From Escherichia coli (lineage in GTDB: Bacteria > Pseudomonadota > Gammaproteobacteria > Enterobacterales > Enterobacteriaceae): a stretch of 64,000 nt of DNA. Numbering within the stretch: position 1 is the stretch's first letter; every line of letters starts with the position of its first letter. Shown here one piece after another: positions 28,181 to 28,719 of this stretch. The notes below the pieces were generated by a model. That model ran no database searches. It saw only the letters and a list, made by a program, of their open reading frames with translations, and was not told where the DNA came from. Location: NCBI RefSeq assembly GCF_003334335.1, contig NZ_QOWQ01000016.1; one strand, written 5' to 3'. A program made the translations under genes and the position numbers.

Positions 28181-28536
28181 TCACTTTCAAAAGTCCCTGA
28201 ACTTCCCAACGAATCCGCAATTAAATATTCTGCCCATGCGGGGAAGGATGAGAAGCTTCGACCAAGGTTCGACTCGAGCGCCAGCGAGAGAGCGTTGCCG
28301 CAGGCAACGACCCGAAGGGCGAAGCGCGCAGCGCTGAGTAATCCTTCCCCCACCACCATCACTTTCAAAAGTCCCTGAACTCTCAAGCGAATCCGCAATC
28401 AAATATTCTGCCCATGCGGGGAAGGATGAGAAGCTTCGACTAAGGTTCGGCTCGAGCGTCAGCGAGAGAGCGTTGCCGCAGGCAACGACCCGAAGGGCGA
28501 AGCGCGCAGCGCTGAGTAATCCTTCCCCCACCACCA
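28181..28536 (+). repeat. rtT: Two ~178-bp tandem repeats of the rtT/tpr type, each ending with a copy of the tRNA 3' end
   Basis: Units 28181-28358 and 28359-28536 each end in ATCCTTCCCCCACCACCA; matches the known tyrT operon distal repeats. Confidence 0.75.
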
Positions 28537-28719
28537 TCGCTTCCTTAAATAATCAAAACCTGTTACTCCGAGCTAATTTTGCCCGATGGCACCACGTTTA
28601 CCGGGCCTACAATATCCTCCCCTGTAGGTCGGATAAGCGAAGCGCATCCGACAACTCACCCCGCACCGTGCCCATAAAAAAACCCCGCCGAAGCAGGGTC
28701 TATGTGAACTAAAATTCGC

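Follow-up and report, generated by a model that had tools for sequence, protein, structure and literature searches.

What is the array of tandem repeats that follows the tRNA-Tyr genes in this stretch of Escherichia coli DNA, and why does each repeat end like a tRNA? We examined the array within its window, the whole analysed stretch of 64,000 nucleotides. A sequence-only reading had taken the 178-bp repeats for RtT units, known biology in which every unit presents a mimic of a tRNA processing site. Our analysis agrees that the feature is the RtT repeat of the classical tyrT operon, and current annotation pipelines recognise it (homologous E. coli elements carry the RefSeq/PGAP label "RtT sRNA, processed from tyrT transcript"). 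The interpretation that we favour and consider quite probable is that this is the tyrT operon of K-12-like E. coli, in which the RtT copies of the tRNA end are processing mimics and the array is subject to unequal recombination. The correct annotation is three tRNA-Tyr genes and four RtT elements, not a 299-aa protein, a YchS-like protein or an unassigned repeat array. The feature itself is already known, and the main value of the analysis is annotation hygiene; worth keeping are the unusual copy number of this strain and the evidence that RtT tracks the adjacent tRNA.

The RtT RNA and the 178-bp repeats of the E. coli K-12 tyrT operon were reportedly described by Bosl and Kersten in 1991, and the released RtT RNA is reported to modulate the stringent response. 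Other stable RNAs from the spacers and trailers of tRNA precursors, 3'ETS-leuZ among them, are likewise non-tRNA RNAs that share a transcript with tRNAs and are set free by tRNA processing enzymes. 3'ETS-leuZ, however, is a base-pairing sponge that works with Hfq, has no tRNA 3'-end copy and belongs to a different family from RtT; RtT is not known to have a base-pairing target of the 3'ETS-leuZ kind.

A tyrT operon with three tRNA-Tyr genes

The array is flanked by purU and narI, as in K-12, and its features are collected in Table 1. A candidate promoter lies 50 nt 5' of the first tRNA-Tyr gene, and we take it to be the classical tyrT promoter. The three tRNA-Tyr genes are equal in length and are separated by two 209-bp spacers; from this one promoter would be transcribed three tRNA-Tyr, with a spacer-type RtT after each of the first two and two distal repeats after the third. 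The spacer segments 27593–27767 and 27887–28061 show no difference, and the two 294-bp units match at 100%, while the two distal repeats mismatch at 8 of their 178 positions. Tandem Repeats Finder reports both periods, 178 bp (2.1 copies with 96% matches, 28162–28542) and 294 bp (2.9 copies, 27498–28360). On the 3' side of distal repeat 2 there is unique sequence, followed by the convergent narI with a terminator on the minus strand. Between repeat 2 and narI, a segment at 28590–28660 looks by eye like a REP (palindromic unit), containing cctgtaggtcggataagcgaagcgcatccgaca.

Table 1. Features of the tyrT array and the open reading frames that overlap it (positions in the window)
Feature	Position	Strand	Basis
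Candidate tyrT promoter, TTTACA-16-TATGAT with upstream TG	27430..27457	+	Consensus scan, 10/12
tRNA-Tyr(GUA) copy 1	27508..27592	+	ARAGORN; Rfam tRNA model, 53.4 bits
RtT element 1, spacer type, within spacer 27593–27801	27636..27767	+	RF00391, 132.9 bits
tRNA-Tyr(GUA) copy 2	27802..27886	+	ARAGORN; Rfam tRNA model
RtT element 2, spacer type	27930..28061	+	RF00391, 132.9 bits
tRNA-Tyr(GUA) copy 3	28096..28180	+	ARAGORN; Rfam tRNA model
Distal 178-bp repeat 1 (RtT at 28227–28358)	28181..28358	+	RF00391, 137.5 bits
Distal 178-bp repeat 2 (RtT at 28405–28536)	28359..28536	+	RF00391, 133.8 bits
299-aa ORF, TTG start	27499..28398	-	ORF list
116-aa ORF, counterpart of K-12 ychS (b1228), artefact	28187..28537	-	90% identical to K-12 YchS
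tpr ("protamine-like protein") ORF, 29 codons plus stop	28248..28337	+	ORF list

Each RtT element ends in a copy of the tRNA-Tyr 3' end

Both 178-bp units close with the tRNA-Tyr 3' end, as had been noticed from the letters; AATCCTTCCCCCACCACCA is the final 19 nt and can be read directly. The 18-nt core, ATCCTTCCCCCACCACCA, has seven copies within 1.03 kb, all on the plus strand (ending at 27592, 27767, 27886, 28061, 28180, 28358 and 28536), and none elsewhere in the window; 100 dinucleotide-preserving shuffles of the window gave a mean of 0.00 copies and a maximum of 0. Three of the seven belong to the tRNA-Tyr genes, whose 3' ends they form, each spacer holds one, and each distal repeat closes with one. 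Identity around the core runs one base further 5' (an A, which makes 19 nt) and one base further 3' (a T). The spacer between tRNA genes had been said to contain the same motif, which it does, but what each spacer holds is a whole RtT element (RF00391) and not the motif alone.

All four elements are full-length matches to RF00391 (model positions 1–130; gathering score 45 bits), and all four lie 3' of a tRNA-Tyr or of another RtT on the same strand. In each of them the 3' 19 nt equal the tRNA-Tyr end at 19 of 19 positions, CCA included, so that the copy covers the end of the T-loop, the 3' strands of both T-stem and acceptor stem, and ACCA. Spacer-type element 1, which terminates in this 19-nt copy, has the same sequence as the K-12 tyrT–tyrV spacer. 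When the units were aligned to the K-12 tyrT operon, as had been proposed for its distal region, the spacer unit and distal repeats 1 and 2 proved base-for-base identical. Few parts of the unit are better conserved than the 3' block, the opposite of the missing processing-site context that had been named as grounds for giving up the reading.

The MG1655 locus is annotated with tyrT, tyrV, rttR, tpr and ychS. The K-12 rttR RNA, 171 nt long, has its start at position +8 behind the tyrV CCA and its end precisely on the CCA that closes repeat 1; this annotation agrees with what a tRNA-like 3' processing site predicts. Its counterpart in the window, with coordinates mapped from K-12, is 28188–28358. 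Going by the K-12 and PGAP annotation, an RtT RNA of about 171 nt would probably be released here from the tyrT transcript as a discrete and stable species. The proposal that each unit presents a processing-site mimic gains support, at the level of sequence comparison, from the rttR end at CCA, the conserved 3' block and a trailer shared with true tRNAs (see below).

Short direct repeats (19–25 nt here) at regular spacing are also the mark of CRISPR arrays, and the sequence-only reading had warned that the region is easily misannotated as a protein or as CRISPR. The first half of that warning holds, since ychS is annotated in K-12. The second does not; the "spacers" are repeats in their own right, which makes confusion with CRISPR unlikely. 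Unlike CRISPR spacers, the intervening segments of the RtT array are 100, 156 and 159 nt long and mutually 96–100% identical within a type, and the repeat is the end of a tRNA gene. We rejected a CRISPR array on this anatomy, which lacks unique spacers of similar length.

RtT RNA is closed by a helix built on the copy

We picture the RtT element as a structured RNA module of about 130 nt, the 3' strand of which copies the end of the adjacent upstream tRNA. The closing helix, on which the Rfam structure, RNAalifold and single-sequence folding agree, is formed by the ten bases at the 5' end of the copy, AUCCUUCCCC, and by GGGGAAGGAU, which lies about 105 nt further upstream. This leaves an 8-nt tail, CACCACCA, free, whereas the tRNA leaves only ACCA. 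On these predicted structures the copy is a mimic of the sequence, not of the structure, of a tRNA end; given the different helix register and the 8-nt tail, recognition by enzymes that read structure, such as RNase P or the CCA-adding enzyme, is not implied.

The structure is conserved. When the Rfam structure was laid on 150 distinct units, 97.0% of cells were paired, compared with 44–53% in slid controls, and seven pairs of the 150-unit alignment had changed on both sides. The terminal helix is 98.3% paired (column pair 17/136 is G-C in 143 units, A-U in 4 and G-U in 2), and the inner hairpins covary strongly, one pair being U-A 85 times, C-G 32 times and G-C 19 times. The predicted fold of the spacer type has an energy of −60.2 kcal/mol (z −2.91) with a 10-bp closing helix; that of the distal unit is no more stable than its shuffles (z −1.06). 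Distal-type units have an extra hairpin at about columns 102–122 of the alignment, apparently the same as the extra helix framing a tandem GA that was described by Rivas (PMC8250186). The two subtypes can also be told apart by sequence, the spacer type (between tRNAs) having GGGTGAGAACC and AGCGAAGCGACGAATAAT and the distal type the extra GC hairpin.

The resemblance to tRNA raises two alternatives, tRNA-Tyr pseudogenes in decay and att-site scars left when a small element integrated in the tRNA 3' end; we hold either to be highly improbable. Elements that integrate into tRNA 3' ends duplicate the segment from the T-loop to CCA, and the identity seen here does run from inside the T-loop to CCA, like an integrase att duplication. 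Part of the RtT body, CTTCGA..AGGTTCGA, resembles the variable-arm and T-arm segment of a tRNA, and the RtT 5' arm matches the tRNA T-arm region in inverted orientation at 86%. Yet neither ARAGORN nor the Rfam tRNA model (RF00005) finds any tRNA beyond the three true ones, on which basis we rejected the pseudogene; RtT has no more in common with tRNA than the 3' 19 nt and a short stretch resembling a T-arm. The unit has a 159-bp body with a conserved and covarying structure of its own. The att-site duplications of islands and phages are likewise direct repeats of the T-loop-to-CCA part of a tRNA, but the RtT "insert" differs from theirs in being a 159-bp structured module that is conserved in Enterobacterales and transcribed with the tRNA, and neither integrase nor cargo is evident at the array. 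Each flank is a single continuous alignment to other E. coli, and the features listed there are ordinary (purU, nar).

The similarity between the 5' arm and the tRNA has a second aspect. The arm of distal repeat 1 (28240–28261) is 86% complementary over 22 nt to the T-arm/acceptor 3' region of the upstream tRNA (28151–28172), and in the precursor it could pair either with that tRNA or with the 3' copy of its own RtT. We also looked for TruB modification of the T-loop-like GGUUCGA of RtT in a pseudouridine preprint; the preprint (PMC11623569) makes no statement on RtT itself.

The copy follows the adjacent tRNA-Tyr across Enterobacterales

We surveyed 120 loci, one genome per species, that were fetched by a core RtT pattern. 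About 110 are from Enterobacterales, ranging from Citrobacter, Klebsiella and Salmonella out to Pectobacterium, Pantoea, Sodalis, Pragia and Xenorhabdus. The core pattern misses units such as repeat 2 (CGG for CGA), and the counts given here use an nhmmer profile at a threshold of at least 40 bits. Twelve of the 120 loci have no profile match of at least 40 bits. We discarded eight of these as non-enterobacterial chance matches to the pattern (Bacillus, Lachnospiraceae, Clostridia, Muribaculaceae, Rhodospirillales, Bacteriovoracaceae and an archaeon), and the other four, with Pectobacterium, Sodalis and Enterobacteriaceae among them, have degenerate or partial units only.

Outside E. coli, the survey yielded 213 RtT elements, which are closely linked to tRNA-Tyr (187/213): 113 start 39–48 nt after a tRNA-Tyr gene and 74 follow another RtT, while 19 of the 213 lie at locus edges. 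The commonest architecture, found at 13 loci, is two adjacent tRNA-Tyr genes and then a single RtT (Y Y R). This single RtT already has the tRNA-end copy, and the copy is therefore independent of tandem repetition.

The copy also varies with the tRNA. Taking the nearest upstream tRNA-Tyr as reference and ignoring kinship among the units, we found that the final 18 nt match exactly in 101 of 123 RtT behind the common A70 tRNA-Tyr (0 with G), in 24 of 25 behind the G70 variant CCCCCGCCACCA (0 with A) and in nine of nine behind the U variant CCTTCTCCC. In mixed arrays it is the adjacent tRNA that the RtT matches; one locus, L089, has an A-type RtT after its A-type tRNA and a G-type RtT after its G-type tRNA. 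The U variant occurs in three lineages, Pantoea allii, Pragia fontium and a third under the label Enterobacter ludwigii. There the GGGGAAGG of the RtT 5' arm is replaced by GGGAGAGGG, GGAGAAGG or GAGAAGG, so that the helix stays paired, with A-U in place of G-C at column pair 17/136 in 4 units. Selection on the closing helix would account for such compensating changes in the 5' arm. The trailers of the two kinds of RNA agree as well, again in counts that ignore kinship: position +1 is U after 95% of tRNA-Tyr and 94% of RtT, position +2 is C or U after 93% and 97%, and G is almost missing from +1 to +6 after both. About one fifth of the RtT units, often the last in their array, have degenerate 3' ends, which means that the copy is not indispensable in every unit.

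Within the window, the bodies of spacer-type and distal-type RtT are 79% identical, while their 19-nt ends are 100% identical. The spacer-type body is 96.5% identical to its counterpart in Kluyvera (window 27636–27767; L067:10020–10151). The spacer type is thus closer across genera than it is to the distal type, which makes the two types old paralogues, and with bodies at 79% and copies at 100% the copy is not merely the trace of a recent duplication.

These data bear on whether the tRNA 3'-end copies could be a by-product of tandem duplication and unequal crossing-over with a boundary inside the tRNA gene and no role in processing, which we regard as improbable. The locus is indeed highly polymorphic in copy number, terminal units often decay, and RtT copies G70 even though this base is unpaired in the RtT fold, for which recombination is a simpler cause than structural selection. 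Such an origin does not sit well, however, with a copy that is already there in single-copy RtT, with its complete identity in paralogous types that predate the split of the genera, or with a 5' arm that compensates changes in the copy; nor does it explain the G-poor, U/C-rich trailer common to RtT and true tRNAs, or the end of K-12 rttR exactly at CCA.

The reading of the copies as processing mimics leads to the following scheme. The enzymes of tRNA 3' maturation would cut in the trailer and trim back to CCA, and RtT ends would be treated likewise. A long precursor would in this way be chopped into tRNAs and discrete RtT RNAs, such as the 171-nt rtT/RttR of K-12. A stronger proposal is that the RtT 3' end is actively kept identical to the upstream tRNA-Tyr because identity itself is functional, which would make RtT a cis-acting partner of the tRNA; we think this unlikely. 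Were it true, RtT might occupy or buffer the enzymes of the tRNA 3' end, as a decoy for them; or else a 5' arm that alternates between the T-arm/acceptor strand of the tRNA and the copy could couple the maturation of tRNA-Tyr to the release of RtT. We did not find RtT–tRNA co-evolution across Enterobacterales in the literature examined. That RtT copies the variants of its adjacent tRNA, with compensating changes in its 5' arm, adds a little to what is known of an old element, and this variant tracking gives a handle on whether the copy matters for processing.

Several loci of the survey depart from the usual setting. In Acerihabitans arboris (L008, about 5344–5990) and Sodalis sp. dw_96 (L054), RtT lies between tRNA-Tyr and tRNA-Gly in a Thr-Tyr-Gly-Thr tRNA operon of the thrU-tyrU-glyT-thrT type, and RtT thus travels with tRNA-Tyr, not with the purU–narI locus. 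Five loci of Citrobacter and Trabulsiella (L003, L006, L081, L084 and L096) have a truncated RtT 5' of the first tRNA-Tyr, covering about model positions 30–122 and missing both the 5' arm and the tRNA-end copy; it may be the relic of a lost upstream unit. Enterobacterial tRNA-Tyr–RtT arrays are also found in records labelled "Chryseobacterium sp. 18061" (L121), "Martelella alba" (L049) and "Enterobacter ludwigii" EnVs2 (L078), the last with a tRNA variant otherwise found in Pantoea and Pragia. These three records are likely contaminated or mislabelled.

Open reading frames at the array

The longest open reading frame at the array, 299 aa on the minus strand, had been called an artefact of the repeats lying across 28181–28540. 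The frame exists, although most of it falls outside those coordinates, as it runs antisense through the three tRNA genes and three of the RtT elements. That it is an artefact is borne out by a frame test over 150 distinct units and by a search of NCBIfam, which gave no match for the 299-aa or the 116-aa antisense ORF. Within the 299-aa ORF, successive RtT CCA ends are spaced by 294 and 297 nt, each divisible by 3, which places the three units in one frame, and if one unit is open all three are open; the step that follows, of 178 nt, shifts out of this frame. The internal 98-aa repeat of the ORF is the 294-bp period of the DNA. Its frame is open in 69 of the 150 units and the other two antisense frames in 62 and 88, and so no antisense frame is preserved.

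The start codons have the same origin. The complement of the tRNA-end copy with CCA and the following T reads ATG GTG GTG GGG GAA GG and is translated as MVVGEG, with which every antisense ORF at the array starts. Each copy of the 19-nt block seeds one such ORF, and ychS, which K-12 annotation lists as "putative uncharacterized protein YchS", is one of them.

On the plus strand, the tpr ORF has 33 aa if counted from the upstream ATG at 28236, and K-12 tpr (b1229) is annotated at the matching position. It is intact only in repeat 1, a TAA interrupting it in repeat 2 and in both spacers. Its ATG is present in 111 of the 150 distinct units, 75 of these 111 have a stop after 5 codons, and at least 24 codons are open in 23 of the 150.

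Coding by the 299-aa or 116-aa antisense (YchS-like) frames, or by the 29-aa Tpr peptide, is accordingly extremely improbable. It is true that the ORFs exist, that K-12 annotation has ychS and tpr, and that Tpr was reported in 1981, according to a passage in PMC11623569. Against this stand antisense frames that are open about equally often, the missing family match, an ORF antisense to three tRNA genes, a protein repeat and an antisense ATG that both derive from the DNA, and a tpr frame that, where it has the ATG, mostly closes after 5 codons. The frame-conservation test, the NCBIfam search and the comparison with K-12 YchS led us to reject a protein-coding gene.

Copy number and probable recombination

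Locus and family are the same as in the K-12 tyrT operon (RF00391), and only the copy number differs. The window has three tRNA-Tyr genes and two distal repeats, while K-12 has two tRNA-Tyr genes and three repeats (3.14 in the classical description). The span between the flanks is accordingly 1029 bp in the window (27508–28536) and 913 bp in K-12, the latter made up of 2 tRNAs, 1 spacer and 3 distal repeats. Relative to K-12, one 294-bp unit of spacer and tRNA (RtT element 2 with tRNA copy 2 or 3) has been gained, and repeat 3 is missing; both are clean whole-unit events. Window repeat 2 differs from K-12 repeat 3 by 9 mismatches, and the sequence directly 3' of it is the unique sequence that is found after K-12 repeat 3.

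Both 19-kb flanks are essentially 100% identical to those of the phylogroup-A strains WG1, G6/7 and G8, and 99.9% identical to K-12. These three nearest strains by flank have the 913-bp arrangement of K-12, and among the best 60 E. coli matches only CH4784 and O157:H7 F1273 have three tRNA-Tyr genes. Such repeats are easily misassembled, and the arrangement in the window might be a K-12-type locus with two tRNAs and three repeats that was put together wrongly. We consider this doubtful, as CH4784 and O157:H7 F1273 are independent complete genomes that each have 3 tRNA-Tyr genes and 4 RtT elements, both changes are of the whole-unit kind expected from unequal crossover, and copy number differs widely within the species. 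Across 5,426 E. coli genomes there are 1–3 tRNAs and a varying number of RtT elements, with locus spans that step by 178 or 294 bp; these spans come only from BLAST rows anchored in both flanks, as feature counts under partial matches are unreliable (K-12 would appear with RtT x2). A laboratory derivative of K-12 is reported to have lost one tRNA and RtT (PMC12584984).

Unequal recombination between the repeats would be the obvious cause of the difference from K-12, going by the arrangement of the units. The seven direct copies and the 178- and 294-bp repeats would offer substrates for it and thereby allow copy number to change, and the same recombination may keep the 19-nt blocks identical to the neighbouring tRNA. 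The three-tRNA copy number would then mark unequal recombination at the tyrT locus, and the tRNA-Tyr gene that is extra relative to K-12 could slightly raise tRNA-Tyr dosage.

The locus is also represented on plasmids. There are 36–37 matching places on E. coli plasmid records, for example 92348–92668 of NZ_CP141085.1 (385,579 bp), and one E. coli plasmid record carries two tRNA-Tyr genes and RtT. A further difference in repeats lies outside the array. Over 28537–48000, genomes of the MG1655 type align to the window as two pieces that span about 535 bp more than the window does, and an rdlD-family antitoxin RNA has a single match at 44788–44853 on the minus strand (91.8 bits). Together they suggest that the window has one ldr/rdl long direct repeat fewer than MG1655-type genomes.
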